Origin: an uncultured bacterium
GTDB lineage: Bacteria; Auribacterota; JACPWU01
Assembly: GCA_964640155.1 (NCBI GenBank)
Contig: CAZXEQ010000001.1
Span: 30,001 to 62,000 of the forward strand
Reading direction: 5' to 3'
DNA length: 32,000 nt
Part shown: piece after piece, positions 1 to 18,724 of the stretch
How the letters are laid out: each line of letters opens with the position of its first letter
How positions within the stretch are numbered: the stretch's first letter is position 1
Notes under the pieces: generated by a model
Told to the model about the DNA's origin: nothing
Seen by the model: only the letters and a program-made list of their open reading frames with translations
Database searches by the model: none
Made by a program: the position numbers and the translations under genes

Positions 1-1
1 C

Positions 2-3000
2 TCTGAACTGTTCTGGACGTGCATCAACCGATTCTGCTAGACGAACCCAAGAAGATAAAGCGCCTATATCCCGCGAAGAATCCAAATCTAAATGACCATA
101 CAGGACTTCCACAGCACTTCGAAAACGTTCAAGTTTATCTAACCAGGCACTTAGCTTTCTGGCTAAATCTTCAGGAGTATCATTGGCATCTTTTAAATAA
201 TTCAAAGCAAAGTTTGCCCAAGCCACATCCCGAGCCATCGAAACACTTTCTCTTGAGAGCTGCATAACAGCATTTGCCTGAGCAATATTTCCCAATGCTC
301 TCCAATAAGCAAGACGAGCCGTATCTCTTACTCTTATCTGCCCATGATAAAAACGATTTACGCGTGAATGAATAGCGCTTACCACCTCTCCTAAAGTCTC
401 GATTGAAACCCCCTGAGGGCGAGATCGTACATACGTATCCCAAACCGTCAAGTACCCCTGAGAAGCATAATTCTCATTAAATTGACGTGATGCTCCTGTC
501 ACTTGACTATAAAAACCAGCCAAAGGACCTCTCATCGCATTTCGACCTTGACTTCTCTCCCCATCTGAAACCTTTTGAAATTCTGCATTAAAAACTCTTT
601 GTCTAAAAAGTCTGTCATGATAAGCCAATCTTCTTAAATCTCTTATCGTTGGATCAACGTTTGCAGCTTCCGCAGGTTGTAAAACGGGAGAAAGCATCGC
701 CCCTTGAGGAAAACCTTCTGTCACAGAACGTCTATGAGCAACATTTGAAATTCCCCTAAAAAGAAGGGAATCATGTTCAATGTGCTCTCGTAAAGCAGCA
801 TCTGCCATAGGATGCTGCATTAAAAAAAGAGCATAATAACTAGCAAGACCTAAAAACTTTAAATTAACTCCCGCCCCAATATCACGATTAGAAAAAAGAT
901 CTAGAGTTTCCATAGGAATTAAGGCTTCAAAAGAATTGGCCAAAAAATCTGGAAGAGGACTCCCTGATAACGCCCCACTTCTTAAAAGAGGAATGACCCG
1001 ATGAATATTTGAAAAATAGGTTTGCATATCAGACGCAGACATATTCCTAGACCGAGCATAGCGATCAAAAACAAGAGTCCAATCATTTAAATTCATGACT
1101 CTGCCATCACCCACAGCAGCTCCTAAACTATTCAAAACCCCAGAAACCGCACCTCCTGAAACTAAAGATGGAGAACCTCTCATATGTCGAACATGAGGTC
1201 TTAAGCTAAAATCCCTTAAAAGACTTAACAAAGATCTTACTTCTGTGCGTGTCGCAGCTTGTCGACGTGCATAATCACGCTCTAGTTCTGCCAATCTTCT
1301 TTCTCGAATTCTTGAATCATCTTCTCTTCTTGCTTCTCGTTCATGCCATTCATCTTCAATAGCGCGTTCTCTGGCCGCTTCTCTAGATCTCCATCGTTCA
1401 ACAGACAAAGCACGATCCGAACGTCGTCGCTCAGCATCTTGTCGTGCTAATTCATTATGTTGTTCAACATTCCAAAAGGGAAAAGCATGACCATCCCATC
1501 CCGTACCAGATCTTGCTGTCAAATCGACTCTTTCATAATCCTCCTCAGGAACAACAACCGCTTGAGGAAGCTGAAGACGTGATTGACTGAGAGCCTCTAA
1601 AATTTGTCGTCCTCTTTCTAAAGTAGTTTGTCCCGATCTTAGATGAAGGTGAGGATTTGGACGAGGGGCAGGAATTTCAACATGTTGATCTCGTCGAACT
1701 TGTGCCCTTAAAACAGGATCTAATGCTTGACCCAATTCAGCCATTGTATGAATTGGATTTCTCCGATTTGGAAGATGAGTCTGTACTTGCGCTCTAAAAG
1801 CCGGGTCGGAAAGCGTATGATCTACATAATCTCCAGGATTTGCTCCTAAAGCTTGAGCTAAAGCGAGCAAACCCATCGCATCATTCAATGCAACTGTTCT
1901 TCCAACAACTTCACTTCTTTCTAAATTGACTGCATCTACCCAGCCCAAATTAGTATGATAAGCAGGCAGCTGCGCTTGAGTTGCCCCATGATCCGCTGTG
2001 GCCTCTTGAGCCTCATGACCAGGATAACGTACTCTTAAAGTCTGAAGACTTGTAGTTACATCCGTATATGAAGCAACAAAAGGTAAAGCTAAAAATGCAG
2101 CATGGGGTGTAAAAACAGTTTCATAAGAAGGATCCCAATTACGAACCATTCTTAATTCGCGAAGACCTAATTCACCTGCATAATCTCCACGATTATTAAC
2201 AAGAGATGCAGAATGTGCTGCCATCATTCCTTGACGTAAACTGACTTGATGTAAAATTAGAAAAATATCGTTCTTCTTGCTGGTGTAAGCTGCACCCAAC
2301 TGCAGGTCATCAGCGGAATCTAAAGTTCGAACCGAATCTAAAACACGCCCATCGTTATCAATATAGTGGCCATTATCTCTTAAATCTGCCCAGAGACCCT
2401 GTGTATTCAAACCTAATCCTTCAAAACTAGATGGATCCAATCTACTTCCTCTATCCACTCTCAACTGAGCTTCTCCCTGTAGCAAACTACGATACGCAGA
2501 CGCATTTTCATCTACATTTGTAAGTAAAGGAGGAATACCTATTTGAAAACTTGCACCAAAAAAACTCATTGGAGCAACTAAACCAGGCCGTGGATTATAA
2601 ACTCGTACACGCAAATCTGTAAGTCGCTCCATAGGCATTTCCCCCATCGCCACACCTAATAGTGTCGTCAAAGTAGCTTCACTTCCAAACTCACCCCCGA
2701 AAAGATTAAGATTAATATGATTAATCGGAGATGATGCAGGAGCTCCCAAAAATCGAAAAGCCCTTTGAGGAGGAAAAGGTTGACTCAAATCATCTAATGC
2801 TGGCGTCAAAACTAAAGCTAAATACTGACTATTAGGATCTTGAGGATCATGATACTGTCGATCTAAAAAGACACTCAAATCCTGAGGGGGTTGAATGACT
2901 CTGCCCTCTCGGGTCTCTCCAAAAATAATTCTATCAATGATCTGTAAAATAGCACGACCCTGCAAACTTTGATCACGCAGATAAGCACCTCTGAGCGCAA

Positions 3001-6000
3001 TTAAGGAACCTCTTAAATTCCCATTATCAATGCTAGAAATCCAGCTTTCAGCAGGTTGCAATCTCTGCTGAGGAAGTCTAGAATTTTTTGGGAAATATGC
3101 CGCATAGAAGAATCCTCTATGTCTTGGGAGTGTAGATAAGGTTTGTAAGGTACGTAGAGTAAGATCTCTAGCAAGATCTAAATCTAAAACTCCTAAATCA
3201 CGTAATACCGCAATACTGACAAGATAAAAACCAATATTGGTAATACGATGAATAGGGTTGGTTGGAACCAGGCCATTACCTCGAATAGCTGCGGTGTCAT
3301 AAATCAAACCTGTCTCAGGGTCAACTTTGCGACGCATGGACTCCCATGTGGACAACAAAGAATTTCCTAGTTCTCTTTCGTCCGGTTGTAAACCGATTGA
3401 CGCTCCAGTCACACGCGGCCGAACTGCAGTGCCAGAGTCAGGCCTAGGTTGAGCATAAGCTGTAGGAATAAGAACATCACTGATTCTATCCCATAAAGTA
3501 GGCGAAGTCGTCGTACTCATTCTTACTCCCCATCCACCTGAAGGGAGTGGAGACAGAGAAACGGGGAAACCTCCTTGAACTCTTGTGCCACTTGTTTCTG
3601 TACTAGAATCAGATAGTAGTGCGCCTAAAGAAACTCTCTCTGTTGTTAAAGGAGCGATTGAAGGCAATGTGTTTGATTCAGCTCTTGGTAAAGCTGTTTG
3701 GGATGACAACATTAAATTCCAACGCGTTTGAAAAGCAGCAATATCCTCTGGAGAGAATTGAGTTTCTTCAAAAATTTGAATAATTTGTCTTCTAATGTCT
3801 ACTAATTCATCTTCAGAAAAATGTCTTCCTCTTAAGCTTTCTAATAATGAATTTAATCTTGTTCTAGCACGCATTAACCGGACCAACGTTTCTTGAGATG
3901 GTGCAGGCGTTATTTCAGGTCCATGTGCTGCTTGCTGAGAAGTCGTAGCTCTTTGTCTTGCAGCTTCTCGCCTTTGCCTTCTTAAATCTGTCCTCAAAGA
4001 TCGAATACTCTCATCTAATTTTGCCAATTCTCCTTGCAATAAAACTTGCTCTTGACGGATTTCATCCAAAGACCTTTCAGAAGTTGAAGTCGCGACATTC
4101 CCTGATCGTTCTTCAGCATGCTCAACCAGTCTTTCCAAAGAAATACCCAAAGGTAAAAGATATGCTTTTAAAACCTCTCTTTTTTGAGAAAAATCAGAAA
4201 GAGCAGAAAGAAAAACACTTAATGCTTCTTGATATCGAGTATAAGTCATAATCCATTGTCCTGCTCCAACGGTACTTGTTGTTTCTTCCGCTGTATAGGA
4301 TTCTCGAAATTGTCTCCAAGCTGTTTTCTGAGCTTCAAAATATCTTTGAGCTTCAATCACCCTTAAAACAGAATCTTGAAAATCTTGAATTTTTGCTTCC
4401 AATTCAAGCCCCATCTCCCGACGACGTTCACGTAACTCAGATTCAGCTCCCGCTAAACGAATACGCGCAATTCTTCTTTCAGAAGAAATACGGCCTCCTT
4501 CATACAAGGCAAAAGTCCATTCAGCTCCTGCCCCTACGGCCCCTGACAAAAGTTCTAGCCCCGACCCTCTCAAATTCAAACTTCCTAAATGGTGAAAAAT
4601 TGGAGTTGTAACATCAAATTCTGCGCCTTCCACATGATGAACTTCCGGTAATACGGCACGGTTCAAAGGACTGTTCGCAGCATTTGGATTTGAAAAGAGA
4701 CTTCTAAGTCGTGCATCTACCCATGAATCAAAACCAACTTGATCTCTTAACCATGCTGGCACTTGATCATTTAATTGTGCTGTAGGAGGGAAATCCACAT
4801 CTCTTCCCAACAAGACTCTCAAGCGTTCTTCAGCCATGGCCACAGGATGCTCAGCCAATAAAAGTCTCTGAGTTGCTTCTAATCGCTGAGCATCGTTAGA
4901 GTCTCTCAATGTTGTTGATCCTGAAACAGCAGCTTGTTCAGTATATCTTCTTTGAACTGTGCTTATGAATTCTTGAACAGTCGCTTGATCAGAGCGACGA
5001 ATTTCTTCAACTCTTCTTGCTAAAAGCAAATCATGATAAGCCTGCATTAACTCAAGTGTTGCGCGAACTCTTTCTCTTTGAAAAGAAGCTTGAGCCTCAT
5101 CTAAACGATGCTGAGCTGCTCCAATAGAACGAAAATTTGACCATTGAAGATTCAATGTCGCTTCACCCGTGACAGCTTGATTAAATCCTGCACGAAGATA
5201 ATCCTGTGCGGGAGCAGGAGAAATGGATCCAATATTTGTACTGATTAAACCTGCAGAAGTCCTCATAGTTAAAGGTTCTCTAACTTGATTTGTTACAGCA
5301 TCAATTACGCCCTGTCTTGCTTCTTCAACACGGTGATGAGCCCTCTGAATTGAAGGTAAAGCATTGGGTCCTTCAGGATCCAATGCCATTGCCAAAACTC
5401 TCTCAAAACTCAAAATCTGTGGAGAACGAGTAGGCGTAGGTCTTTGTACATTTACTCTTAATGCTTCTTGCCAATCTCTAGAATAATGACTTCTCTCTTC
5501 ACCATAATGCATTAATATTCTCACAGCTGATCGAAAACTTCGTACAGCTCTATCTAATCTTTGTAAGGCTTCTACTTCTTGAACCCGATCTTCCAAGACT
5601 GTTCCTTCATGAACATTGGGGTCCATATTTGCAACAACATTAGGATCGAACTCTTGACCTGTCATGCGCAAGTGAAGCTGTAAAGCTTGTCGAATTCTCA
5701 CAAGATCCGCTTGAATTTCTCTAATCTGATTCAAACTTTGTTCATAATTTCTATGAGCAGCCGATAAATCTTGTTCCTTTTGCCGTAAATACACAGCTCT
5801 TTCTGTTTGGGCATCTTCCATGGCTTGTTCGGCCCGACGCTGAACAGCATCTCTTGAACTTCCTCCAAATCGACCTGTTAAAGTGAGCATCACTTCCCAT
5901 CCTGGAATTGGAGAAGGCGTAGGAGAGGGTGGCTGAAGAGAAAGAGGATTTTCAGGATTTGATGCTAAAACCCGATCAGGTCGGTCTACAAACCCACGTC

Positions 6001-9000
6001 CTCTTAAATCAAATTCAATGGGACGAAGACTCCCCGCAACGGATGACAAGCGACGATTTCTTGCAACATCAGCCTCTAAAACCCTTAAACGCGCTGAACC
6101 ATCATAACCTGTCGATAATTCAAGTAAGTCTCCTGATGGAATTTGTAATGCATTAATCATCTCATCGGTGACTTGACCCATCCCCATCAAATGAAGAATT
6201 TCTATTTTGATTTGACGCAATTGCGTCTCTGCTCGGGTCTTTTCAGCTTCTGCTCGTCTTAAAGCCTGCTCTTGCCCTTGTATGACCAGACTTCCATATA
6301 AATTCGTATGGGCATTCATATACTGAACAAAGGGTCGTCTAAAATTGATTTCTTGATCTAACTTTGCTATATCTTCCTGTAAATCTTGATACCTTAAAAA
6401 TTTATCCGATAAAGATTCAATCACATGGCTGCGCTCTTGATCAATTTGAGCTCGAATATGCGACTCTAAAACTTCAGCGGCATCAATTTCTTCTTGAGTA
6501 GCACCTAACCAAGGAAGCATCCCTGTAATAGCAACACCCGCACCTAAATTAGAAAAAATGCCTTGTTCAGAAAAAGTCCGATCAGGAGAGAAAAAATCAT
6601 GTCCAGAATCTGCAGCATGAAAAGTGTAGTAAACTTGAGCTCTCGCAAAAATACTCAACTGTGGCCTACGGCTAGCACTAGCTAAAGCTCGTCTAGCTTG
6701 TGCCAAACGAAGTTCTGCGTTTAATCTTTGAATATTTGGATTATTTTGAACCGCTCGAGCTAAAATATCATTGCGCTGAATACCAGATAAGGCTTCTGGC
6801 GTCAACCGTTGCGTTTGTTGAACTGTTTGAATTTCCGCTTCCATCCATTGCGCCCTAGCTTGAGTGTATCCCTGTAAAGCTTCTACTTGCCTTCTTCTCA
6901 CTTCCAAACGTTCTCGCATCGTTCCCAATCGAGCTGCCACATCGTCAGGAATAACTTCTGAGGTAGGAAGCTGCGGAATAGTTGCTAACATATTTAAAAC
7001 CGTCATACGATTTCGCCAATCCAATTCAAATTCCTCGCGATGAAATTGATTGGTTCTACGATCATTGTCTCTTGCTACCCTTAACAAACGACGCTGTTGT
7101 TCAACAACTTCTCTTGCTGCACCTGTATATCCTAAATTTGATAAAACATATCCAACTGATAAATCTGCTCCAAGCGTACCTGTCCATGCTCCTCCTACAT
7201 CAAATCGAGGATCAAAATTAATTCTCCTCATCCCTTCAACAATCACACTTGCATCAAACGTAAAACGATTACTTCGATCCATCACAGATCTTTGGGCTTG
7301 AAGAGCTCTGTCTCGAGCCGTATAAAGAAGTTCGGGATCAAGTCTGTGACTTCGAATTAAAGTTTCCTCCATAACCCCATTTACTTCGTTAATTACAGCC
7401 GTTGTAAAATCTGCTCCCTGCAAGCCTTGTATTCTTGTAACAAATTCAGGAGAAAAACCTCTCACATGAAGATTGCCTCGACGAGAAAAACCCATTTGCC
7501 GCGCTAATTCTGTCTGAGCACGATGTAAAACAGACTCAGCTTCTCTTAAAAAAACACCGGCCTGTCCTCGAGCCGCTTCAACATTACTAAACTCTGCATC
7601 AGATAAAGTTTGCCCCGTATGAAGAGCCTGAGCAGCATTGTATAAACCATTTACATCTCTTTGATATTCTCTAACCATCTCAACTTTTAATTGAGCCATT
7701 AACAAACTGACATAAGCTTGTACCGTATCCATCACCACTTGATGTCTATCTCTTTGAGCCATCTGACGAGCAACATCCCAATTCCTTAACGCAAAATGTG
7801 TAGCAGCGGCACGAACTGGATCAAACCGATAACCAAATCTTAAAACTGCCGAAACTTGCAACCAATTTAAAGGTTGTGCAAAAGATCCATCATCATCGGC
7901 ATGACCATAGAAAGTAAAATTTCGATAGTCTCCTCTTAGAATAAGATGAAGTCCTATTCCATTTGCCCCCTCTTGAAAATCATACATGGCTCTGGCAACA
8001 TCCGCTTCAGTTCTTGGAAGATGATCATGATGATTTAAAGCTTGTTCAATAGTCTGACGTAAATCCATTTCTGCAGGTGGAACGGGTTCTGGAAGAGCTC
8101 CTGTTTCAGTGGTAGGAGAAGTAGCTGCCTCGCGTGCCAGCATTTGTCCTCGATTTTCAGTCATCTTAGCTCTCAGAGTTCTTCTTCGTTCTGTGGCTTG
8201 ACCAAGATTTTGTCTCAAAGCTTGGATTGCTTCTGAACTCCCTGGTTCGAGAACAACAGAAGGCACGCCTGGTTTTTGCTCCACTGAAGAAGTTGTCGTA
8301 GTTTGAACGACCAAAGCACCATTTTGATTTGATGTTGTTGAAGTCTGTATGTCTGTGCCAACAGCCCTAGGAGTCAAAGCGGCAATTTGTTGATCCAATT
8401 GATGTTCGGCCTCCTCTAGAACTTGTACTACAGGAACAGAAGAAATAGGAGTCTCTGAAAAAAGAGTTGAAGAAGAATTATCAGGAAGAACTGTCACAAC
8501 AGGCCCTGGCGATGCCAATGGAGAATGAGAATCACCCAAAATCCCTGAACTTTCTGCTGCATGATAAGCAACCCCTCCTGCCATCACTGCAACACTGGCA
8601 TAACCTAAACCCTCCACACCTTTTAAAACTACACGCGTTGGAATAGAAAGTGCTAGAGGATTCCATGCTAGCTCTAACAATGCTCGATCTTCTTCACCCA
8701 ACTTCCCTTTATAATCCAAAAGATCTTCCGCTGTAATCTCTTCTTTTCTCTCAATCTTTTCTATCATTTCCCCTAAAACATCTCTCAAAGGACAAGCATG
8801 ATCTCTTAGAGCTTGATAAAGAACCCAAAGTCCTCCATGGGGATTCCGATCAAAATGCTGACGATGGGTCATCTCAGTCTTTAAAGTGTCCATATCGACA
8901 GGGCGAGATTGATGATATTGACCTAAAAGGGCATCAAAAACTTCTTGAGACATATCTGATCTAATTTGAAATGCTTTTGCCTGTCCTTTTACATCTACTT

Positions 9001-12000
9001 TTAAAATTGCAAAAGGTTTACCTTCATGATAAATCAATTGTACTTCTTCTCTTGCACTCACTACTTTCTCGTCTTCCAATCTTTCAGAAGACTCCACAGC
9101 TTCACCAATTAAATATTCCACCGGATCCAATTCTCTGAAATAAACAAGCCGTCCATGTACAAACTCACAAAAAAGACCCAATTCTGGATAAAATTTTGGA
9201 CCTGTAAAATCTTTTTTTGAAGCCTGAGGAAGATCAAAAACCTTTGCTGTTGTCTGATCATAAAATCTAACAGGATTACCCTTTTGATATTCCACACGGA
9301 CATTGACTTTTCGACGGGCACTGAGTAATTTCCCTTCTAAAAATTGAGCAACATAAGTCTCACTTTCCCATCGACCCGTAAAATTTTCATCGACAGGCTG
9401 AGGAATTGCTAAAGGGGCTGCTCCTTTCCCAAAAGGATCTACAAAATCATAAGCATACACAAAACCAGGTCGTTCTTTACTTTTTAGCTCTTGAACTTTT
9501 TCTGAAGTCATTACTCCTTTTTTTACCAATCGATCTAACGCTTCTGATGTGAAAAGTTCAAAATCATCTGCTGAAAAACCTGTAAAGTTGGCTGACAATT
9601 CAAAAGATTCAGGTCCAGGAATAGAATAGGCCGCTGAAGCATGGTCTCTTGCACTTAAAGAAACGCGTGAAAAACCAATTTCTTTTTTCCCCTCTCGATG
9701 GACAAATCGAACATCCTCTTTTCCTACCACATCATGAAGATCTAACCAATGACCTAATTGTTCTGGACGCAAACCTAAAGGTTTTAAACTGGAAACTCGA
9801 GCTAATTCTTCTTCAATGGCAGATGTTGCTTTTAATAATGCCTCTTTTAAATTATCCTCAAAATTTTCATCATCTAAACTTCCATAAGCCAAATTAATGA
9901 CAATTTTCTGCCCATCCCAAACAACCATTTCAGGTTTCTTTGCAAAATAGGCAGCAACTCCTTCTATTACTTTCCAAACAAGTCCTAAGGCAAATCCTAG
10001 CGTAATCGAAATAAAAGTTTTTGAAATAAACTTCCCAATCAAACTCAAAATAGAAAACGTCCAGCGGGCTGTAATTCCTTCAAGTTCCCTTATTCCCCAA
10101 ACCAAAGAAATCTCTTTCCTGAAACCCTGCCAAATAGAAGGACGAGTTTGATTGCTCTCCACTTTCAATTCAGGTTTATGAATCACAGCGACTCTCACTC
10201 TAGCGGCTTCTTGCATTTGGGCTAAAAATGGATATTGCGTCAAAAGTGTTTGACGCCACTGAACTAAACTCTGATGACCCGCTAACACCTCAGACCCTTC
10301 CATTAAAGTTTCCACACGTTCTAAATCTCCATCTGAAAACTTGCCTTCACCTTTTTGGGTAGGATCTACAAAAAGAATAACGGGAGGATATTCAACAGTC
10401 ACTTCCGGTCCTGCACGATGGGGATGAATCATTTCATCCAGCCAGGATTTTCTTTCGCTTTGAAAATTTCCGAACTTCTTAAAGAATAAGGCAAAGAAAA
10501 CAGCTACATCTTGTCCACGACCTGCCAAATCTGCCAAAACTTCCTGGGCAACACGCTTTTTCTCACCTATATTTGTAGAATGCGTCAAACAAGCAGCTAA
10601 ACGCTTCAACTGAAACTCATTCATCTCCACAAAACTTGCTTCTGGACTTAATTCTTCTGCTTTTTCAATCACTCCTACTTTTAAAATAATTCCCATCGGT
10701 TGGCCATATACAACCACAGGAATATAATAATCATCTCCTAATCTTTGAATTTTCTCTGAATCCACTTCCACGGCTGAAAGAGCATCAGAAAGTCTTTCTC
10801 TTATTGACGCAGCCTCTTCATCACTCAGAAGTCCTTCCCGGACGCGATTGAGCAAAAACCCATTTAAATGAGCTGTATGTTCTTTCGTATTACCCCGCTC
10901 CATTTCTCCAGCCTGCCCCTTTTTCCCTTCAGTAACCAATTTCGTTACTTGAGCACTCGCCAAAATTCTCATTAAACTCAAAGCTACACGGACGGAAACT
11001 TGCTGGGCTTCTGCTTTTGTTCCAGCCACTCTTCTAATCTCTGGATCTGCAATCTCTGCCAAAAAACTTGCTAATGCTGAGGGCAACATATTCAGCATCA
11101 AAGGGCCTAACTGATCGGAATTTCCACGATAAGCCACCAGTGGTATTTGCTTCGAACTCGTATCTGTTGAATCGGAAGGTTGAGAGAGAAGTTTCGATAA
11201 AGAAACTTTACCTTTTACTTCATTCTTCTTACTTAAAACTTTCATCTCTTGTTCCATCGAAGAAAGTTCATCATCCATAATGGAAAGATAAGGAGTTTTA
11301 AGCTTCAATTTGGTTACTTTTGGAGTAATAATCACATAAGAAATACCCTTTTCTTCTAACTGCTTTGCAATCCCCTCTGAATGAAATCCTCCTGCCACAA
11401 GCACAGCAACAGGACTCTTAGCTTCTTTCATGGACTCCAACATATTTTGAACCATCACCTTGTCACGCTCTTTAGCAAAATCATAAAATTGTTTTAAAGG
11501 TTGAATATTTTCATCTAAAAAATTGATATCTGGAACATCGAAAGTCCGATCTACACTTAAAGAAATTTCTTTCAATCGAACTAATAAGTTGGAGGGTTTT
11601 AATTTTTCTTCATTTTCGTAGTAGTAAGACAAACCTGAACGCAAAAGCTCTAAATGATAAAAATCGCGAAGAAGCTTTAATGATTTGCCAATCTCAAACA
11701 AATCTTTTTGTTTTGGATCTTTTAAATAGGCTGCCTGTAAATCTTTTAAAATTTGATCACATTCGCCAAATAAAGCCTCGCTATCAATTTCATTAAAAAT
11801 TTTCACCATTTCAATATAAGAAGAAAGATTAGGATAACTTTCTAAAGAAACTTGAGCCTTTAAAACAGCTTTTTCTAAAGAGCTATAAAATTCATATGCC
11901 TTTATTTTCTCCAAACGATAATAAAGCCCTTGGGTTAAAAGATCTGCGAACTCCTCTTTAGCAACCTTCTTAGAAAGAACATTCATTAAATCCTGTCGTT

Positions 12001-12853
12001 CTTGTTCTACTTTATTGATTTTGATTTTCTTCTCAAGCTCTTTGACATCCATCATCTTCTTGATATTCATGCTTCCAGAAATATTTGAAAGCCCGAGAGT
12101 CTTTACCTGAGCCAGAAGAAACTCAACATAAGCAGCAAATCCTATTTTATCCTGATTGTAGTCTTTCTCTTTTTTGAGAAGATTTTTAACTTCCGATGGA
12201 TAAATTTTATCTTCAAGAACTTTCACTTCATTTTCTAATTGAGTTAAAAGCCCATCTGCTTTTTCCTGAACGGACATAGATTTTTGGAAAGCAAGAAAGT
12301 TATTAAAATAAAGAGGAAGATTTTCAATACCTTTCATCAAAAGGGGCTTATCTTGAACAATCGAGAGATATTCAGCTCCCGTAATTTTCCCCTGTTGAAG
12401 CAAAAGTCGTGCAACTTGTTTACGAATTTCAACTTGAGGGAAAGCTGTGAATAGAGAAGTATCTACCAAACCAGAAGCAGCTTCTAAACCAATCAGTTTT
12501 AAACCATGATCAGAATGTTTTTTGAAAAATTCATTGAGAATTTTTGCAGAATTGGATTGAGCTTCGAAATTACAGTGAAGATCTTGAATGTGAATAATCA
12601 GGGGTTGATTTTGACCTTGAAACTTGGATTTTATAAACCCCAGACTGGGACTTACATGAAATTCGGATACGGTAGGAGAGCTGGATGATGATTTAGACTT
12701 TTGAACAGGTGATTCATTAATTTCCAAGCCTCTTGCAAAGGCAAAATCACTACACAAGAAGCTAAAAGCAACAAGAACTGAAGTAATTCGGATTCTTATC
12801 GAAAAACCGTTCTTTTTTGTAAAAAAATTCCGGGATTGATATTTCCTAACCAT
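2..12853 (-). CDS. Giant multidomain envelope protein; N-terminus complete, C-terminus beyond the window edge (at least 4,284 codons visible)
   Basis: I hand-translated the minus-strand frame (codon low coordinate = 2 mod 3) across all 214 sequence lines. The ATG is at 12853-12851, with GGGGAG 6 nt upstream and an in-frame upstream stop at 12884-12886. No stop codon occurs down to nt 2. The protein starts MVRKYQSRNFFTKKNGFSIRIRITSVLVAFSFLCSDFAFARGLE. A complete-ORF track would omit it because it has no stop in the window, and no other frame in 1-12853 holds a long ORF. Confidence 0.9.
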   Translation of the reverse strand, partial: MVRKYQSRNFFTKKNGFSIRIRITSVLVAFSFLCSDFAFARGLEINESPVQKSKSSSSSPTVSEFHVSPSLGFIKSKFQGQNQPLIIHIQDLHCNFEAQSNSAKILNEFFKKHSDHGLKLIGLEAASGLVDTSLFTAFPQVEIRKQVARLLLQQGKITGAEYLSIVQDKPLLMKGIENLPLYFNNFLAFQKSMSVQEKADGLLTQLENEVKVLEDKIYPSEVKNLLKKEKDYNQDKIGFAAYVEFLLAQVKTLGLSNISGSMNIKKMMDVKELEKKIKINKVEQERQDLMNVLSKKVAKEEFADLLTQGLYYRLEKIKAYEFYSSLEKAVLKAQVSLESYPNLSSYIEMVKIFNEIDSEALFGECDQILKDLQAAYLKDPKQKDLFEIGKSLKLLRDFYHLELLRSGLSYYYENEEKLKPSNLLVRLKEISLSVDRTFDVPDINFLDENIQPLKQFYDFAKERDKVMVQNMLESMKEAKSPVAVLVAGGFHSEGIAKQLEEKGISYVIITPKVTKLKLKTPYLSIMDDELSSMEQEMKVLSKKNEVKGKVSLSKLLSQPSDSTDTSSKQIPLVAYRGNSDQLGPLMLNMLPSALASFLAEIADPEIRRVAGTKAEAQQVSVRVALSLMRILASAQVTKLVTEGKKGQAGEMERGNTKEHTAHLNGFLLNRVREGLLSDEEAASIRERLSDALSAVEVDSEKIQRLGDDYYIPVVVYGQPMGIILKVGVIEKAEELSPEASFVEMNEFQLKRLAACLTHSTNIGEKKRVAQEVLADLAGRGQDVAVFFALFFKKFGNFQSERKSWLDEMIHPHRAGPEVTVEYPPVILFVDPTQKGEGKFSDGDLERVETLMEGSEVLAGHQSLVQWRQTLLTQYPFLAQMQEAARVRVAVIHKPELKVESNQTRPSIWQGFRKEISLVWGIRELEGITARWTFSILSLIGKFISKTFISITLGFALGLVWKVIEGVAAYFAKKPEMVVWDGQKIVINLAYGSLDDENFEDNLKEALLKATSAIEEELARVSSLKPLGLRPEQLGHWLDLHDVVGKEDVRFVHREGKKEIGFSRVSLSARDHASAAYSIPGPESFELSANFTGFSADDFELFTSEALDRLVKKGVMTSEKVQELKSKERPGFVYAYDFVDPFGKGAAPLAIPQPVDENFTGRWESETYVAQFLEGKLLSARRKVNVRVEYQKGNPVRFYDQTTAKVFDLPQASKKDFTGPKFYPELGLFCEFVHGRLVYFRELDPVEYLIGEAVESSERLEDEKVVSAREEVQLIYHEGKPFAILKVDVKGQAKAFQIRSDMSQEVFDALLGQYHQSRPVDMDTLKTEMTHRQHFDRNPHGGLWVLYQALRDHACPLRDVLGEMIEKIERKEEITAEDLLDYKGKLGEEDRALLELAWNPLALSIPTRVVLKGVEGLGYASVAVMAGGVAYHAAESSGILGDSHSPLASPGPVVTVLPDNSSSTLFSETPISSVPVVQVLEEAEHQLDQQIAALTPRAVGTDIQTSTTSNQNGALVVQTTTTSSVEQKPGVPSVVLEPGSSEAIQALRQNLGQATERRRTLRAKMTENRGQMLAREAATSPTTETGALPEPVPPAEMDLRQTIEQALNHHDHLPRTEADVARAMYDFQEGANGIGLHLILRGDYRNFTFYGHADDDGSFAQPLNWLQVSAVLRFGYRFDPVRAAATHFALRNWDVARQMAQRDRHQVVMDTVQAYVSLLMAQLKVEMVREYQRDVNGLYNAAQALHTGQTLSDAEFSNVEAARGQAGVFLREAESVLHRAQTELARQMGFSRRGNLHVRGFSPEFVTRIQGLQGADFTTAVINEVNGVMEETLIRSHRLDPELLYTARDRALQAQRSVMDRSNRFTFDASVIVEGMRRINFDPRFDVGGAWTGTLGADLSVGYVLSNLGYTGAAREVVEQQRRLLRVARDNDRRTNQFHREEFELDWRNRMTVLNMLATIPQLPTSEVIPDDVAARLGTMRERLEVRRRQVEALQGYTQARAQWMEAEIQTVQQTQRLTPEALSGIQRNDILARAVQNNPNIQRLNAELRLAQARRALASASRRPQLSIFARAQVYYTFHAADSGHDFFSPDRTFSEQGIFSNLGAGVAITGMLPWLGATQEEIDAAEVLESHIRAQIDQERSHVIESLSDKFLRYQDLQEDIAKLDQEINFRRPFVQYMNAHTNLYGSLVIQGQEQALRRAEAEKTRAETQLRQIKIEILHLMGMGQVTDEMINALQIPSGDLLELSTGYDGSARLRVLEADVARNRRLSSVAGSLRPIEFDLRGRGFVDRPDRVLASNPENPLSLQPPSPTPSPIPGWEVMLTLTGRFGGSSRDAVQRRAEQAMEDAQTERAVYLRQKEQDLSAAHRNYEQSLNQIREIQADLVRIRQALQLHLRMTGQEFDPNVVANMDPNVHEGTVLEDRVQEVEALQRLDRAVRSFRSAVRILMHYGEERSHYSRDWQEALRVNVQRPTPTRSPQILSFERVLAMALDPEGPNALPSIQRAHHRVEEARQGVIDAVTNQVREPLTMRTSAGLISTNIGSISPAPAQDYLRAGFNQAVTGEATLNLQWSNFRSIGAAQHRLDEAQASFQRERVRATLELMQAYHDLLLARRVEEIRRSDQATVQEFISTVQRRYTEQAAVSGSTTLRDSNDAQRLEATQRLLLAEHPVAMAEERLRVLLGRDVDFPPTAQLNDQVPAWLRDQVGFDSWVDARLRSLFSNPNAANSPLNRAVLPEVHHVEGAEFDVTTPIFHHLGSLNLRGSGLELLSGAVGAGAEWTFALYEGGRISSERRIARIRLAGAESELRERRREMGLELEAKIQDFQDSVLRVIEAQRYFEAQKTAWRQFRESYTAEETTSTVGAGQWIMTYTRYQEALSVFLSALSDFSQKREVLKAYLLPLGISLERLVEHAEERSGNVATSTSERSLDEIRQEQVLLQGELAKLDESIRSLRTDLRRQRREAARQRATTSQQAAHGPEITPAPSQETLVRLMRARTRLNSLLESLRGRHFSEDELVDIRRQIIQIFEETQFSPEDIAAFQTRWNLMLSSQTALPRAESNTLPSIAPLTTERVSLGALLSDSSTETSGTRVQGGFPVSLSPLPSGGWGVRMSTTTSPTLWDRISDVLIPTAYAQPRPDSGTAVRPRVTGASIGLQPDERELGNSLLSTWESMRRKVDPETGLIYDTAAIRGNGLVPTNPIHRITNIGFYLVSIAVLRDLGVLDLDLARDLTLRTLQTLSTLPRHRGFFYAAYFPKNSRLPQQRLQPAESWISSIDNGNLRGSLIALRGAYLRDQSLQGRAILQIIDRIIFGETREGRVIQPPQDLSVFLDRQYHDPQDPNSQYLALVLTPALDDLSQPFPPQRAFRFLGAPASSPINHINLNLFGGEFGSEATLTTLLGVAMGEMPMERLTDLRVRVYNPRPGLVAPMSFFGASFQIGIPPLLTNVDENASAYRSLLQGEAQLRVDRGSRLDPSSFEGLGLNTQGLWADLRDNGHYIDNDGRVLDSVRTLDSADDLQLGAAYTSKKNDIFLILHQVSLRQGMMAAHSASLVNNRGDYAGELGLRELRMVRNWDPSYETVFTPHAAFLALPFVASYTDVTTSLQTLRVRYPGHEAQEATADHGATQAQLPAYHTNLGWVDAVNLERSEVVGRTVALNDAMGLLALAQALGANPGDYVDHTLSDPAFRAQVQTHLPNRRNPIHTMAELGQALDPVLRAQVRRDQHVEIPAPRPNPHLHLRSGQTTLERGRQILEALSQSRLQLPQAVVVPEEDYERVDLTARSGTGWDGHAFPFWNVEQHNELARQDAERRRSDRALSVERWRSREAARERAIEDEWHEREARREDDSRIRERRLAELERDYARRQAATRTEVRSLLSLLRDFSLRPHVRHMRGSPSLVSGGAVSGVLNSLGAAVGDGRVMNLNDWTLVFDRYARSRNMSASDMQTYFSNIHRVIPLLRSGALSGSPLPDFLANSFEALIPMETLDLFSNRDIGAGVNLKFLGLASYYALFLMQHPMADAALREHIEHDSLLFRGISNVAHRRSVTEGFPQGAMLSPVLQPAEAANVDPTIRDLRRLAYHDRLFRQRVFNAEFQKVSDGERSQGRNAMRGPLAGFYSQVTGASRQFNENYASQGYLTVWDTYVRSRPQGVSIETLGEVVSAIHSRVNRFYHGQIRVRDTARLAYWRALGNIAQANAVMQLSRESVSMARDVAWANFALNYLKDANDTPEDLARKLSAWLDKLERFRSAVEVLYGHLDLDSSRDIGALSSWVRLAESVDARPEQFR
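1840..3340 (-). other. Glucoamylase-like (PF10091/DUF3131/GH144-type) (alpha/alpha)6 glycoside-hydrolase-like domain of the giant protein (aa about 3,170-3,670)
   Basis: Motifs TNPIHRITNIGFYLVSIAVLRDLGVLDLDLARDLTLRTLQTLSTLPRHRGFFYAAY...WISSIDNGNLRGSLIALRGAY and YHTNLGWVDAVNLERSEVVGRTVALNDAMGLLALAQAL. They resemble the GFFYhW...S.iD...L and GyGf.DafN...iDqGp.l motifs of that family. Recalled from memory, not searched. Confidence 0.45.
4142..8068 (-). other. Six OEP (TolC-type) repeats forming three TolC-protomer-sized units inside the giant protein (aa about 1,596-2,904)
   Basis: Three consecutive units of about 425-435 aa (about nt 8068-6800, 6799-5500 and 5499-4142). Each opens with a TolC-like N-terminal motif: MDLRQTIEQALNHHDHLP; LSGIQRNDILARAVQNNPNIQRLNAELRLAQARRAL; ILSFERVLAMALDPEGPNALPSIQRAHHRVEEARQ. 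Each also contains OEP signatures such as ATLNLQWSNFRSIGAAQHRLDEAQASFQRERVRATLELMQAYHDLLLARRVEEIRRS and AEWTFALYEGGRISSERRIARIRLAGAESELRERRRE. Confidence 0.75.
9941..10063 (-). other. Internal hydrophobic transmembrane segment(s) of the giant protein (aa about 931-971)
   Basis: Translation WTFSILSLIGKFISKTFISITLGFALGLVWKVIEGVAAYFA, flanked by charged residues. Confidence 0.5.
11300..12680 (-). other. N-terminal module of the giant protein, paralogous to the neighbouring 1,063-aa protein; ChaN/TraB/GumN/Tiki-like His motifs
   Basis: Giant PLIIHIQDLHCNFEAQSNSAKILNEF...LKLIGLEAASG aligns with neighbour TVLLVQDAHCNFEAQRNTSEILNSL...IPLIGLEGAQG. Giant FYDFAKERDKVMVQNMLESMKEAKSPVAVLVAGGFHSEGIAKQLEEKGISYVIITPKV aligns with neighbour FYEFALQRDEAMLNASLQGMEEKKVSLMMLVTGGFHTQGIAQALKEKDISFFIITPKV. 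The spacing between the two His motifs is about 390-400 aa in both proteins. The superfamily assignment is an inference from this motif pattern. Confidence 0.6.
12731..12853 (-). other. Predicted Sec signal peptide of the giant protein (aa 1-41)
   Basis: Basic n-region (RKYQSRNFFTKKNGFSIRIR), hydrophobic core ITSVLVAFSFLC and an AFA-R cleavage-like site. Assigned by eye only. Confidence 0.55.
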
Positions 12854-12904
12854 TTGCAACTCCCCGCCCCCCAGTTTATATAACTACTTCTCTCTCTTTA
12901 GTTA

Positions 12905-12913
12905 ATTATACCA
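12905..12913 (-). promoter_or_regulatory. Alternative extended -10 element (TGGTATAAT) upstream of the giant gene
   Basis: The minus strand reads TGgTATAAT at 12913-12905, about 50 nt upstream of the ATG. Confidence 0.35.
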
Positions 12914-12937
12914 TAGAGATGCAAATTTCACATATAT

Positions 12938-12966
12938 GCTATACCACATGAAATATCAGATGTCAA
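12938..12966 (-). promoter_or_regulatory. Candidate sigma-70 promoter for the giant gene (TTGACA-17 nt-TATAGC)
   Basis: On the minus strand, TTGACA is at 12966-12961, followed by a 17-nt spacer and TATAGC at 12943-12938. The site is about 85 nt upstream of the ATG. Confidence 0.4.
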
Positions 12967-13027
12967 ATTTCGACATAAAGATTCTTTAACGTATAAGTTT
13001 ATTTTATAAGCAATTTTAGATTAAGGC

Positions 13028-13552
13028 TTAAGGATTTGTATTTTTTGAATCTTGGGATGTTACTTTTTGATCAGAAGGCAGATTATTGGTGGGCCCTCGC
13101 TTCAAACCAGCCAAATAGTTCTCAAACCAGACAGGAACTTGATAACCATGGGTCTTAGCCAGCTTCAAATGGGCCTCAGATTTTGAAACATCAGGAGGGT
13201 TTTTTCTGGCAAAACTGATCGCAAGAGAATAATGGGTCAAAGCAAACTTCTCATCCATTTTCAGGCCTTTTTCAAGTTCCTGAATAGCTCTTGTAAAATC
13301 CTCTTTCCCCATCCAACATACGCCATAATACACTTGAGCTTTGACGTTGGAAGGTTCACTAGATAACACTTTTTCAAAAAGCGGCAAAGCTTCTGCATAT
13401 TGAGCTTTTTGATAAAGATCATGCGCTTGGTTAAAAATAGCTTGTGTATCTTCTTCTTTTTGAGCTGGATCAGAAGAAGAGATAGGTTCTGAATAAACAT
13501 TTAATCCAAATGTTAAAACCAAAAGAAGATTCCAAAATACAATTTTTCTCAT
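13028..13552 (-). CDS. Secreted TPR-repeat protein (174 aa)
   Basis: ORF track entry. N-terminal signal peptide MRKIVFWNLLLVLTFGLNVYS. TPR-like repeats (AIFNQAHDLYQKAQYAEALPLFEKVLSSEPSNVKAQVYYGVCWMGKEDFTRAIQELEKGLKMD). AAGGA Shine-Dalgarno about 8 nt upstream of the start. Confidence 0.75.
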   Translation of the reverse strand: MRKIVFWNLLLVLTFGLNVYSEPISSSDPAQKEEDTQAIFNQAHDLYQKAQYAEALPLFEKVLSSEPSNVKAQVYYGVCWMGKEDFTRAIQELEKGLKMDEKFALTHYSLAISFARKNPPDVSKSEAHLKLAKTHGYQVPVWFENYLAGLKRGPTNNLPSDQKVTSQDSKNTNP

Positions 13553-13656
13553 CAGTTCATTCCTTAAGTTTGGAGAGAGCTACGAGTTAAGAACCGGCAC
13601 GGCCAAGTAGGTATATAGTAGCTTTACTACAAGAACTAGCCCTATAGGGTTTGCTG

Positions 13657-13729
13657 GTCATCCCCGAATGTTTTAATCGGGGATCCATTTGTATACAGTG
13701 GATTCCCGCTTACAGATTGCGGGAATGAC
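13657..13729. repeat. Cloverleaf-like triple hairpin (GC-rich structured element) in the intergenic spacer
   Basis: Outer stem gtca 13657-13660 / tgac 13726-13729 encloses three adjacent hairpins: tccccga 13661-13667 / tcgggga 13677-13683; tcca 13684-13687 / tgga 13699-13702 around the palindrome tgtataca; ttcccgc 13703-13709 / gcgggaa 13719-13725. Confidence 0.5.
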
Positions 13730-13797
13730 AATCTTTGTAGTTAAACTTAACACGTTTGTATTAATTTCTTTATATCCCTTAACTCTTGGCCCTATTT

Positions 13798-16700
13798 TTA
13801 CGCCGATTGTCCTAAAACCTCATCTTCCATACCACCCAGCGCATTCAACTCTTGCGATGCATCCATGCTGGGCTGAGGAGGAAGATCCATATGACCTTCA
13901 ACAGCAACTCCCTTTAAAGCTCCCACAATTTTCTCTCGAGTCATTCCTGTACGAGCTAAATTCTTCTCTAATGCATCTACCAATTCTTGAGGGGGTTCAA
14001 ATTTTTCCCCTGTTCCTACTAAGCTCTTAACTTCATTGACAATCACGACAGCTTCTGTAAAAGAAGTCGCTTCTCCCAATTGACCTTGTTCAATAACAAA
14101 TGCCAAATGCTTGGCCAAACGGCCCGCTAATTTTTCCTTACTTTCTACAAAAAGAACAATGTTTTTTGCATCTATTTTTACTTTTTCAGCAATAGCTCGA
14201 GACAATGTATCCAAAATATTTTCTTCTGCCTTCTTTTCAGAAATCACATCATTAACTCCCACAAAAAGCGCTGCATCGCCAGGCAACCCAAATAAATTCA
14301 AAATATTCTGCCTGACTTGAGCATACGCAGAAGCAGGGACACTTTCATCCAAACTAATTAAAGCTAATTTTAAAGTTTGCTCTGCAGGGGTTCCTCTGAC
14401 ACGAGCAATGAGATTCTTAATTGTAGCAATGACTTCTCCTGCTTGAACGCTCGGCTTAGCTTGCACACTGCCATTTTCAACGGTCACAGATTCAAAAAGT
14501 AAATTAGTTAATAAACCAATGGCCATGGGTTCGGTAAAATCTTTTTCGTACAAACTTGCAATCGATGCACCTTTTTCCTCCAAAGTAAGCCGCGCTGATG
14601 TGGCAACTCGCTCTTTATTACGCACGTCAATACCCACTTCAGGATTTACAGCCAATTGATCTTTAAATCTAATTTTCAAATCTCCATAAAGTCTTGCAGC
14701 TATCTCAAAATCAGAAACAGAAACCGCAGCTGTATAAAGTGCATCCACCATGCGCTTGGCTTGATTCAAATCATCCAAAGCAAAAGTGATTTCTAAGTCA
14801 GCTAAAACTTTTCCTAAACTTTCAATTGTTACATCACTCGAAGCCAGACGATCAAATAAAACTTGTGCTTTGTCTCCATCCACTTCCACGCTCAAATTTT
14901 TCAAAGCTGCTATCAACCATTGATTTCTCAAAGCCGTCTGAGCATTTGAAACATTTTGGGGAGTTTCAAACGCAGAAAAAGCAATAATACCCTCACTTGA
15001 ATCCATTGAGCCGGTTACATCTCCTCCATTGACTCGCGTTGGAACCAATCCTCGAGATGCCGCGCGAGCTTGAATATTTGCTGGCGCCTTTTCTCCCTGA
15101 CTCAAAATCACAACACTTTCACGGCGACTGACTTTCCCGTCTTCACCTTTGACTTCATAGGAAATAGGCATTTCTACATAAGTGATTCCATTCTCAACCT
15201 TTAATCGAGGGGGTGAAATCCAAACTTGTTCGGCCCCTAATTTTTCTCTTAAAGACGCGAGATCTTGATAAGCCTTTAACAAGGCTAATTGTAAAGTTAA
15301 AAGAGCTTGCCCCTTTTGATAAAAAGGTTCTAGCGTCATTCGAAGAATTGCAAAAAGCTCTCTCATGCTGCGCCTGCGTCCATCGGACATGGAATCTTTT
15401 GCTGTGACCAACGGGACTTGAACAGCCAAAGCACTCCCCTGACTCAACCATTGATCGAGTGGAGACAATTCATTCATCAAAATTGAAAAATAGGGAATTG
15501 GGACATTTTTCTGAATCACTTTGGGAGTAATAATAAAAAAGCTAATATCTTTTTCTTTGAGTGCTTGGGCAATTCCTTGGGTATGAAATCCCCCTGTTAC
15601 AAGCATCATCAAAGAAACTTTCTTTTCCTCCATCCCTTGCAGTGAAGCATTCAACATCGCTTCATCTCTTTGTAACGCAAATTCGTAAAAAGCTTTAAAC
15701 AAACTTGTCACTCCTTCTAAATTCTTCAAATCTTCAGGAAACACAAGAGGAACTTGTCGATCATCTGCTATTTTAGCTAAAGGAGAAACGATTTTATCCC
15801 ATTCAAATTCATCTGAGTGCTTCTGAAAATATTCAAACTCTGAATTTGAAATACGAAAATGACAAAGGCGGGTAATCAAACCTACTTTTACATCAATTTC
15901 ATTTAATTCCTTCTCTTGAGCACTCTGAAGTAGTTTTTCTTTTAATCCATTTGTTAATCCTTCGATTTTTTCAAAAAGTTCTGGCTCCAAAATTTCTTTC
16001 ACATGATAAATATAATTGTGATAAATAGCCACTTGAGGGAAGTTTTTAAGATCAATATTTCTATCTTTTGAAAGACGAAATAAAAATCCATAATATTTCC
16101 ACGCTGAAAGGCGATTGGTTTTAAAAAGAAGAGTTTGAGAAAGTAACTGGCCTGAAATTTCAGGAGCTAAATCTTTACTCAATTGATTGATTAAGTCTGC
16201 CCTTTGTTTTTCTAACAATTCAAAATCAAGCTGCTTTTCCAGCATAAAAACATTCTGTTGCTCAGCAACAACCGATTGAGGATCAACCTTATGCCCGACG
16301 CTTTCAGCAAAATCCATCAAACTCGAGAAATAAGGTTGAAATAGAATCTCCCCTCTTTCATAAGATTGCAAAATGCGATCCAATTCAAACATCTTCTTTG
16401 AATAAACTTTTTCTTTCAGCTGATCTAAATTTTCCTGAAGTGCTTGAAAAGCAGGTTCAAACTTCTGAAAAGAACGATAAGCATTCCTAAATGCTTCCAA
16501 ATTTTTAAAATAAAGATCACGAGACTCAACGCCCAGAAGTTCTGTCCCCTTGGCCAAATCAGAATTAATCACAAAAAATTCTGGTCCGGTAAGCCAGGCG
16601 TCCTTCAAAAAAGAATATGTAATCTCTTGAACAGCCTGTCGATTAGGATCAGAGGCAAAAAGATCTTCTTCAAACTCACCTTGTGCGCCTTCTAAGCCAA

Positions 16701-16989: not shown

Positions 16990-17044
16990 TGCCTTACCTT
17001 CTGTTCAATCCAAGAGTGGAAAATCATTAAAAAGACCTACTCTA

Positions 17045-17073
17045 AATATAGCTTAAAAACCTTCGAAAGTCAA
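17045..17073 (-). promoter_or_regulatory. Candidate sigma-70 promoter for the 1,063-aa gene (TTGACT-17 nt-TATATT)
   Basis: On the minus strand, TTGACT is at 17073-17068, followed by a 17-nt spacer and TATATT at 17050-17045. The site is about 55 nt upstream of the ATG at 16989. Confidence 0.45.
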
Positions 17074-17123
17074 GAAAGGGGGTTTATCAAAGAAGGAAAA
17101 TAGAGATACCGTTTATCTAGTTA

Positions 17124-17166
17124 GCGGGTGGCACTCGGTGGGGCGCTGTCGAGTGACAGGACCCGC
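17124..17166 (-). other. GC-rich stem with mutually exclusive inner hairpins, 11 nt downstream of the trmL stop; atypical terminator or RNA element
   Basis: Outer stem gcgggt 17124-17129 / acccgc 17161-17166. Inner pairing is either cactcg 17132-17137 / cgagtg 17150-17155 or ctgtc 17146-17150 / gacag 17155-17159. No U-tract follows. Confidence 0.35.
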
Positions 17167-17176
17167 AATTTTCACC

Positions 17177-17629: not shown

Positions 17630-17661
17630 AATAACTCTATTTTAATAGACTCTTATCCGTA

Positions 17662-18471: not shown

Positions 18472-18480
18472 ATGACTCTT

Positions 18481-18619
18481 GCGTGCCGGCCCCGATATTT
18501 TTCGGGGGGCCGACTTACATCGGCCTTGAGCCAGTCACTCCTCCTAGTAGTCGAATATCAGCCACTGGCTGATATGCATTCTTAATCAAATCTTCTGACC
18601 AATGGCCTTTAAGAAGTCA
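18481..18619 (-). ncRNA. tRNA-trailing structured element E1 (between the tRNA-Glu 3' end and the 269-aa gene start); same family as E2 and E3
   Basis: Shares the family core with E2 and E3. Conserved hairpin atatcagcc 18555-18563 / ggctgatat 18567-18575, flanked by tagtcg and gcat. Hairpin ccccga 18490-18495 / tcgggg 18502-18507. Left end gcgtgcc. GC-rich island within AT-rich spacer. The strand is assumed from the tRNA orientation. Confidence 0.5.
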
Positions 18620-18692: not shown

Positions 18693-18724
18693 AAAAAAAT
18701 CATTTTGAAAATTAAAATTTTTGG

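Follow-up and report, generated by a model that had tools for sequence, protein, structure and literature searches.

Introduction

The ducts of the TolC family are the textbook example of a trimer-only channel, in which every chain makes up one third of both the barrel and the tunnel. A review of these outer membrane factors (OMFs) describes them as obligate trimers with a 12-strand barrel and a 12-helix tunnel, ~140 Å long and 40–70 Å wide, and assigns four of the strands and four long helix equivalents to every protomer; the trimers described there consist of separate chains only (Chem Rev 2021, PMC8277102). Here, we analyzed a 32,000-nt stretch of DNA from an uncultured bacterium of the Auribacterota (lineage JACPWU01; contig CAZXEQ010000001.1, positions 30,001–62,000 of the forward strand; hereafter, the window). 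A preliminary description of this stretch had proposed that three TolC protomer equivalents are fused in tandem inside one giant protein and might form a single-chain channel. We find that three TolC-type protomer equivalents are almost certainly fused in one chain, and that this tandem chain is a real, rare and previously undescribed variant of the TolC family. That the three units also close into one single-chain TolC-type channel is the reading we favor, with moderate confidence.

Three TolC-type units in one giant open reading frame

The units lie in a minus-strand open reading frame (ORF) that starts with the ATG at nt 12853 and runs stop-free to nt 2, with its C-terminus beyond the window edge; this confirms the proposed length of more than 4,000 aa for the protein around them. 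Within it, nt 8068–4142 encode aa 1596–2904 and are open throughout, and no competing ORF of at least 150 aa was found over nt 1–13027. Both the GC content at third codon positions (GC3) and the Arg codon use of the giant ORF are the same as in the rest of the window and the neighboring genes. The ORF and its three units are as follows:

2–12853, minus strand: giant ORF of at least 4,284 aa (stop-free translation; Shine-Dalgarno-like GGGGCGGGGAG just 5′ of the ATG; GC3 match to neighbors)
6791–8068, minus strand: unit 1 (U1), aa 1596–2021, the most divergent TolC protomer equivalent (OEP, TolC profile, hhalign, structure model, orthology)
5417–6790, minus strand: unit 2 (U2), aa 2022–2479, with a Pro-rich loop within its second hairpin (OEP, hhalign, orthology)
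4142–5416, minus strand: unit 3 (U3), aa 2480–2904, the most TolC-like (OEP, TolC profile, hhalign, orthology)

Searched against Pfam, the whole giant protein matched the OEP family (PF02321) in five stretches (E = 2e-19, 70.6 bits; cut-off 22 bits), and no other Pfam family rose above its cut-off. Taken separately, U2 (4.9e-13, 49.7 bits) and U3 (1.4e-12, 48.2 bits) each matched in two stretches. Six OEP matches had been anticipated, one for each half-unit (a and b); five of the six half-units matched, three of them individually significantly, and the expectation failed for U1b:

U1a: 17.3 bits, under the 22-bit cut-off
U1b: no OEP match
U2a: 44.2 bits, covering the whole 187-position repeat
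U2b: 16.1 bits, under the cut-off
U3a: 26.1 bits
U3b: 28.1 bits

No OEP signal was present in the flanks at aa 1380–1595 (216 aa) or aa 2905–3150 (246 aa).

A hidden Markov model (HMM) built from 13 full-length TolC homologs, which came from a search with a profile of the units and TolC homologs, crosses the giant protein three times in colinear fashion, at aa 1584–2014 (model positions 17–433, fragmented), aa 2024–2393 and aa 2500–2866 (3.6e-17, model positions 44–397). In a joint alignment with the same 13 homologs, units 1, 2 and 3 are all colinear from H1 to H8, and hhalign with the single sequence of unit 3 gave a probability of 98% over 340 columns. An alignment of the whole chain with the 13 homologs was rejected, as MAFFT split the homologs between two units, with the N-terminal half falling on unit 2 and the C-terminal half on unit 3. 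The three consecutive units are thus borne out at 425–458 aa each, colinear with full-length TolC-family protomers, and the TolC N-terminal helix motif reported at their starts was located at aa 1596, 2022 and 2480, where it aligns with H1/H2 of the TolC homologs.

In all six halves one can read a tip-turn motif, G-x-x-(S/T)-x-x-(D/E)-hydrophobic, which aligns with the G..T..DVL motif of the family. Each half-unit has one two-strand hairpin, six in total, with an alternating hydrophobic pattern in most:

7823–7954, minus strand: first candidate transmembrane β-hairpin of unit 1, aa 1634–1677 (model strands at unit residues 40–53 and 67–80; alternating pattern)
7136–7264, minus strand: second candidate β-hairpin of unit 1, aa 1864–1906 (model strands 271–283 and 300–310, in a low-confidence part of the model; alternating pattern)
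6515–6661, minus strand: first candidate β-hairpin of unit 2, aa 2065–2113 (position relative to TolC homologs; alternating pattern)
5864–6019, minus strand: second candidate β-hairpin of unit 2, with the Pro-rich loop, aa 2279–2330 (position relative to TolC homologs; alternating pattern)
5132–5272, minus strand: first candidate β-hairpin of unit 3, aa 2528–2574 (position relative to TolC homologs; alternating pattern; hhalign of the orthologous unit pair, see below)
4493–4585, minus strand: second candidate β-hairpin of unit 3, aa 2757–2787 (same three lines of evidence)

Profile matches, topology and fold place the units in the TolC/OMF superfamily.

Structure model of unit 1

Because unit 1 is the weakest of the three units, we chose it for structure prediction. 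From a 16-sequence alignment composed mostly of TolC homologs, AlphaFold returned a model with a predicted local distance difference test score (pLDDT) of 62.7 and a predicted template modeling score (pTM) of 0.54. Its first half is modeled as H1(3–13), H2(16–36), S1(40–53), S2(67–80), H3(84–151) and H4(157–191), and its second half as H6(245–266), S4(271–283), S5(300–310), H7(316–362) and H8(384–419). Canonical OMF helices measure 67 aa (H3/H7), 36 aa (H4/H8) and 23 aa (H2/H6) (PMC8277102), compared to 68 aa for H3, 35 aa for H4 and 36 aa for H8 in the model.

Foldseek retrieved 39 PDB matches for the model at E ≤ 0.001, every one of the TolC family, including chains of TolC, ST50, OprM, OprN, CusC, CmeC, VceC, MtrE and SilC. 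These matches extend over ~430–445 columns with TM-scores of ~0.55–0.66, and coiled-coil folds (F-BAR) rank far below them. For 1ek9, 5bun, 7ng9 and 1wp1, among others, the E-values are 1e-13 to 1e-9; TolC, ST50 and OprM are covered over their full length at ~1e-13 and a TM-score of ~0.6. Unit 1 is therefore predicted, at the level of this model, to have the TolC/OMF topology and fold.

A second giant protein with the same three units

The preliminary description had suggested looking for the same fusion in related genomes, and we found it, with all three units in matching order, in an ORF of at least 3,961 aa on contig JACPWU010000003.1 of a groundwater metagenome-assembled genome (MAG) (positions 9974–21856 of a locus that we call L003; Pfam OEP 9.9e-10). 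From a reading of the sequence, its units span aa 1556–2000 (A), aa 2121–2610 (B) and aa 2611–3070 (C), with OEP E-values of 0.29, 2.9e-4 and 3.8e-14, respectively. The two proteins thus show the same gradient, in which the first unit is the least TolC-like and the third the most, and neither has further OEP units flanking the three. Smith-Waterman comparison of the units, scored as z against shuffles, paired them by position:

U1: 8.8 with A, 1.0 with B, 0.1 with C
U2: 1.1 with A, 10.4 with B, 5.3 with C
U3: 1.8 with A, 3.6 with B, 8.5 with C

The orthologous pairs U1–A, U2–B and U3–C share 22–24% identity. BLASTP aligned U2 through U3 with B through C over 668 colinear residues, across the unit boundary (1e-5), and the start of U1 with the start of A (3e-4). 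When a profile of each orthologous pair was compared by hhalign with 12 TolC homologs, U3+C matched with 97.5% probability (6e-12, 369 columns) and U2+B with 88% (3e-6, 287 columns). Finer features are also shared: the Pro that precedes the hairpins in TolC is, in our reading of both proteins, absent from both halves of unit 1 and present in both halves of unit 2, and all six hairpins stand at their expected positions in each protein. Since this position-specific orthology holds across ~22% identity, the triplication predates the split of the two proteins, and each of the three unit positions has been maintained as a lineage of its own.

Within the window protein, the units are only 14–21% identical to one another in the joint alignment, the figure that had been sought to date the triplication. 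The only significant local alignment between units is that of U1 with U3 (z = 5.7, 30 identities in 92 columns), and nt 4142–8068 contain no DNA repeats. The low identity and the lack of repeats indicate that the triplication is ancient. A recent duplication is ruled out by the same absence of repeats and by units that can barely be aligned to each other; together with the native GC3 and Arg codons, these results describe an arrangement that is old and native, neither recently duplicated nor recently imported.

These data also bear on whether the units are an artifact, be it of coiled-coil composition, of a chimeric assembly or of pseudogene decay. The region is helical and rich in Arg, Glu, Gln and Ala, and it incurs a heavy composition penalty in phmmer, as such an explanation would have it. 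However, the 12.85-kb frame is intact and of native GC3, the matches are family-specific and colinear, the F-BAR coiled coils fall far behind the TolC family in the Foldseek ranking, and the same architecture recurs in an independent MAG. We regard an artifact as very improbable and, in effect, refuted.

On JACPWU010000003.1, the L003 ORF and a second one (L001, positions 3–7763) are in phase, their first codons lying 19,332 nt (3 × 6,444) apart. With 7.4 kb of DNA between them, these frames may be parts of one ORF of ~9,031 aa.

Database and literature searches

No homolog of the three-unit region was found among 5.8 billion clustered proteins, and a full HMMER search of 1.84 billion representatives returned just two proteins, both of the ordinary TolC-like kind (~1e-4). 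Scanning genome and metagenome contigs with the single sequence of this region likewise gave no match, and neither did a metagenome scan with the alignment of the window and L003 proteins. The profile of the units and TolC homologs retrieved single-unit proteins alone (436–661 aa), in a search that is not a systematic domain-architecture survey. A homolog search with the C-terminal region of the giant protein found none. In the other 47 loci that share the N-terminal head domain of the giant protein (described below), there were no TolC-like units within the locus DNA examined. Our literature searches, which did not include a domain-architecture survey of databases, found neither a fused or single-chain TolC nor a natural covalent OMF trimer. 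Short of such a survey, the literature and the databases thus agree with the earlier statement that this arrangement had not been described; rare multi-OEP proteins may still exist elsewhere.

Assembly of the three units

We base single-chain closure on the occurrence of exactly three units in both proteins, on their position-specific conservation and on the short linkers between them, which by predicted secondary structure measure ~14 residues from H8 of unit 1 to H1 of unit 2 and ~31 residues between units 2 and 3. The giant protein would be exported by Sec through the inner membrane via its N-terminal signal or anchor, and the three units would then pack side by side about a pseudo-threefold axis. 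With four β-strands and four long helix equivalents from each, they would complete a 12-strand outer-membrane barrel and a 12-helix periplasmic tunnel. For this module we infer an outer-membrane location and a duct function: it would supply the duct and also hold the giant protein fast in the outer membrane. A TolC protomer has its two termini in the periplasm, which is where the flanks are likewise expected unless the C-terminal part undergoes export; the 1,595 aa ahead of the units and the stretch of at least 1,380 aa behind them would come out next to each other at the periplasmic equatorial belt. Covalent linkage would leave the units free to diverge into three fixed, different positions.

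The linkers also bear on an assembly between chains, in which three giant chains would associate and each unit would trimerize with like or swapped units to give three ordinary threefold channels. Every characterized OMF is a homotrimer (PMC8277102), and oligomerization is compatible with our data, including a full-chain model with a pLDDT of 39. Yet linkers of ~14 and ~31 residues would be too short in all three chains to span barrels of 40–70 Å, so that joining three separate homotrimeric barrels side by side seems implausible. Homotrimers would, moreover, give no reason for exactly three units that correspond one to one across ~22% identity, or for their strong, position-specific divergence. 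We therefore consider assembly between chains unlikely.

Several observations weigh against a TolC-type single-chain channel. By sequence, unit 1 is only marginally TolC-like: U1b lacks an OEP match, as noted above, and in hhalign the U1+A profile reached 55% probability (1.2e-4) and aligned to the other repeat. The model of unit 1 is biased toward the TolC fold because its alignment is dominated by TolC homologs, and the strands of its second hairpin have a pLDDT below 50. The NCBIfam model TIGR01844, for the type I secretion TolC subfamily, scored 20.7 bits against a cut-off of 225. Solved TolC chains were retrieved neither by phmmer of the three-unit region against the PDB nor by two-sequence profiles of each orthologous unit pair, and the known family members with the three-unit module number just two. 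The full-chain model with a pLDDT of 39, a single-sequence AlphaFold prediction for aa 1596–2795, is too poor to use, so that closure is something we infer. Genes for an adaptor or an inner-membrane pump (ABC, RND, MFS) were absent from the ten upstream genes scanned in the window, and there were none within 10 kb upstream of the L003 gene. TolC genes are, for their part, often unlinked from pump genes. Finally, we know of no precedent for exporting a precursor longer than 4,000 aa or for BAM-type insertion of an internal module.

A part of this evidence would suit a degenerate scaffold, a TolC-derived, non-conducting, rigid helical stalk of ~100–140 Å that spaces or anchors enzymatic parts across the periplasm. 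The low family scores point that way, with three of the six halves under the Pfam cut-off and TIGR01844 far below its own, as do the failure of sequence searches to retrieve a solved structure, the lack of pump partners nearby and the weak amphipathicity of several strands (U3 S1 and C S5). Against it, the six hairpins are kept in place in both proteins, mostly with the alternating pattern, the tip-turn motif is recognizable in every half, and a mere spacer would need no set of exactly three complete protomer equivalents. Such a scaffold is, in our judgment, rather unlikely, and the single-chain channel remains our preferred interpretation.

The giant protein outside the three units

The remainder of the giant protein and its upstream paralog comprise the following features:

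12737–12793, minus strand: N-terminal hydrophobic segment, aa 21–39, behind a basic N-terminus; candidate Sec signal peptide or signal anchor (AFA/RG; hydropathy scan and sequence)
11249–12832, minus strand: head domain, aa 8–535 (28% identity, 2e-62, to the start of the upstream ORF)
9950–10066, minus strand: hydrophobic stretch, aa 930–968; candidate membrane segment or segments (hydropathy)
8561–8632, minus strand: weakly hydrophobic Gly/Ala-rich segment, aa 1408–1431, at the switch from Lys-rich to Lys-poor sequence (composition, hydropathy)
8069–8536, minus strand: Ser/Thr/Pro-rich linker ahead of unit 1, aa 1440–1595 (sequence; no OEP signal)
3404–4141, minus strand: coiled-coil-like and Ser/Thr/Pro-rich linker after unit 3, aa 2905–3150 (generic coiled-coil Pfam matches only, no OEP; sequence)
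2504–3361, minus strand: glycoside-hydrolase-like segment of the (alpha/alpha)6 type, aa ~3165–3450 (phmmer against the PDB)
875–1192, minus strand: tail module, aa 3888–3993, in common with the L003 protein (BLASTP, Smith-Waterman)
13798–16989, minus strand: upstream paralog of 1,063 aa with the same head domain (sequence identity)

The membrane-anchored N-terminal part of the preliminary description would correspond to the candidate signal or anchor segment at aa 21–39, which we located by hydropathy. Its glycosidase-like C-terminal part was likewise recovered: aa ~3176–3446 weakly match the glycoside-hydrolase-like domain of cyclic β-1,2-glucan synthase in phmmer against the PDB (8rf9/8rf0, 1.5e-5; 8xuj, 2.3e-5; 8wy1, 1.6e-4), with no match in Pfam. 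Directly upstream of the giant gene in L003, at 4959–9833 on the plus strand, lies a gene for a protein of 1,624 aa with a Pfam Glycoamylase domain (5e-44), TSP3 repeats, fn3 and PA14; its match to the hydrolase-like segment of the window protein is weak but colinear (E = 0.005). A hydrolase that is fused to the units in one protein and encoded next to them in the other is a hint of joint action between the channel module and a glycan-active enzyme. The tail modules of the two proteins (aa ~3347–3461 in L003) are 25% identical over 126 aa (BLASTP 6e-6; Smith-Waterman z = 6.5) and share the motif ...W..VF..Y...R..S..DM..YF.

The composition of the giant protein changes sharply along its length. 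Residues 1–1400 (nt 8651–12853) include 121 Lys and 63 Arg, and the 2,884 residues from aa 1401 to 4284 (nt 2–8650) include 23 Lys (0.8%) and 302 Arg, with the switch coinciding with the Gly/Ala-rich segment at aa 1408–1431. Because GC3 and Arg codon use are unchanged, the avoidance of Lys acts on the amino acid and does not reflect foreign DNA, and recent horizontal transfer is ruled out as its cause. Lys depletion was not seen in the L003 ortholog or in other related giant ORFs, and a literature search on Lys-poor outer-membrane proteins yielded nothing relevant. Within the window, an outer-membrane protein of the alginate-export family (19161–20540, minus strand; Pfam 4e-34) contains 1.5% Lys, compared to 7–11% in its neighbors. 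Lys depletion may be a property of the outer-membrane and surface proteins of this organism.

It is conceivable, though quite improbable in our estimate, that the module is a TolC-type autotransporter, a self-sufficient single-polypeptide duct acting in cis. The 245-aa linker after unit 3 would then loop to the periplasmic tip, and the C-terminal part, which is depleted in Lys, at least 1,380 aa long and equipped with the glucan-hydrolase-like segment, would thread unfolded through the protein's own tunnel, to be displayed on the surface and to attack or harvest the glycans of neighboring or prey cells. More remote still is delivery of the whole Lys-poor part, channel included, into the membrane of a target cell.

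The head domain (aa 8–535) gives the window two paralogs, since the start of the 1,063-aa ORF upstream of the giant gene carries the same domain. An alignment of these two copies finds 48 loci in GTDB genomes at 23–43% identity, labeled Omnitrophota (25), Auribacterota (two) and, for the rest, 'Planctomycetia', 'Chlamydiae bacterium', FCPU426, Firestonebacteria or unclassified. Many of these head domains open ORFs of 2,000–3,900 aa or more, often as two giant genes in tandem, and the closest relatives (38–43% identity) are from a groundwater 'Chlamydiae bacterium' MAG and Candidatus Theseobacter exili (Auribacterota). The domain measures ~520 aa and is marked by the motifs QD-HCNFEAQ and GGFH, with D91, H93, C94, Q99, E124, G488, G489 and H491 invariant. 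It bears a faint resemblance to TraB (0.037) and ChaN (0.054) of the Tiki superfamily, both under the Pfam cut-off, and its profile gave spurious EF-hand matches only in the PDB. Judged by this domain, the giant protein belongs to a head-domain family of PVC-group candidate phyla, and its bacterium to the PVC group.

On its upstream side, the giant gene is preceded by unremarkable housekeeping genes, including those for SpoU methylase, a sigma-70 factor, PPDK and GlyQ/GlyS; interspersed with them on the minus strand are three tRNA genes, likewise unremarkable, for Glu-CTC (18619–18693), Gln-CTG (18972–19044) and Arg-CCT (21939–22012).

Comparison with described systems

Very long, modular and sequence-unique ORFs are likewise known from the giant proteins of Omnitrophota, also in PVC-group candidate phyla (West-Roberts et al. 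2023, bioRxiv 10.1101/2023.11.21.568195; bioRxiv 10.64898/2026.06.07.730766). Like these, the window protein combines membrane segments with carbohydrate-active parts. It differs in lacking SecA-DEAD or dockerin domains in Pfam and in being much shorter than the 30–147 thousand aa of the giants in both papers, which make no mention of TolC/OEP modules. An outer-membrane channel module would be an addition to the repertoire of PVC-group giant proteins, and one tied to a glucan-hydrolase-like enzyme, by fusion in the window protein and by gene neighborhood in L003.

Type V autotransporters, especially the inverse (type Ve) intimin/invasin group, also carry a complete 12-strand barrel and a large C-terminal region on one chain, as proposed here, and in principle the C-terminal region of the giant protein could be a passenger. 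In contrast to theirs, the barrel would be a TolC-like alpha/beta structure that includes a tunnel in the periplasm, and a Pfam search with the whole protein (E up to 1) matched no family of autotransporter or inverse-autotransporter β-domains. That the C-terminal part passes through the duct would be pure speculation.

The OMF family itself provides the closest likeness. As in TolC, OprM and CusC, the units are protomer-sized (425–458 aa), contain two internal repeats and match the family profile, and they follow the order H1-H2-S1-S2-H3-H4/H6-S4-S5-H7-H8 with corresponding helix lengths and, for unit 1, the modeled fold. Unlike OMF protomers, they have no signal peptide or lipobox of their own and sit inside a chain longer than 4,000 aa, ~1,570 aa past its only signal-like segment (aa 21–39). 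Three identical separate chains are replaced by three non-identical, covalently joined units; with three units in one ORF that are 14–21% identical, the protein is a variant and not a TolC homotrimer. If the single-chain channel is real, the TolC fold tolerates both covalent concatenation and the loss of symmetry, and nature offers an asymmetric scaffold for probing the roles of single protomers in gating and adaptor docking. It would also pose an assembly problem, namely the insertion of 12 strands into the outer membrane from inside such a large precursor. A precedent for broken symmetry exists in the RND pump MdtBC, where non-identical subunits likewise break the threefold symmetry of an efflux-system component (PMC8277102), with the difference that those subunits are separate chains and form an inner-membrane pump.

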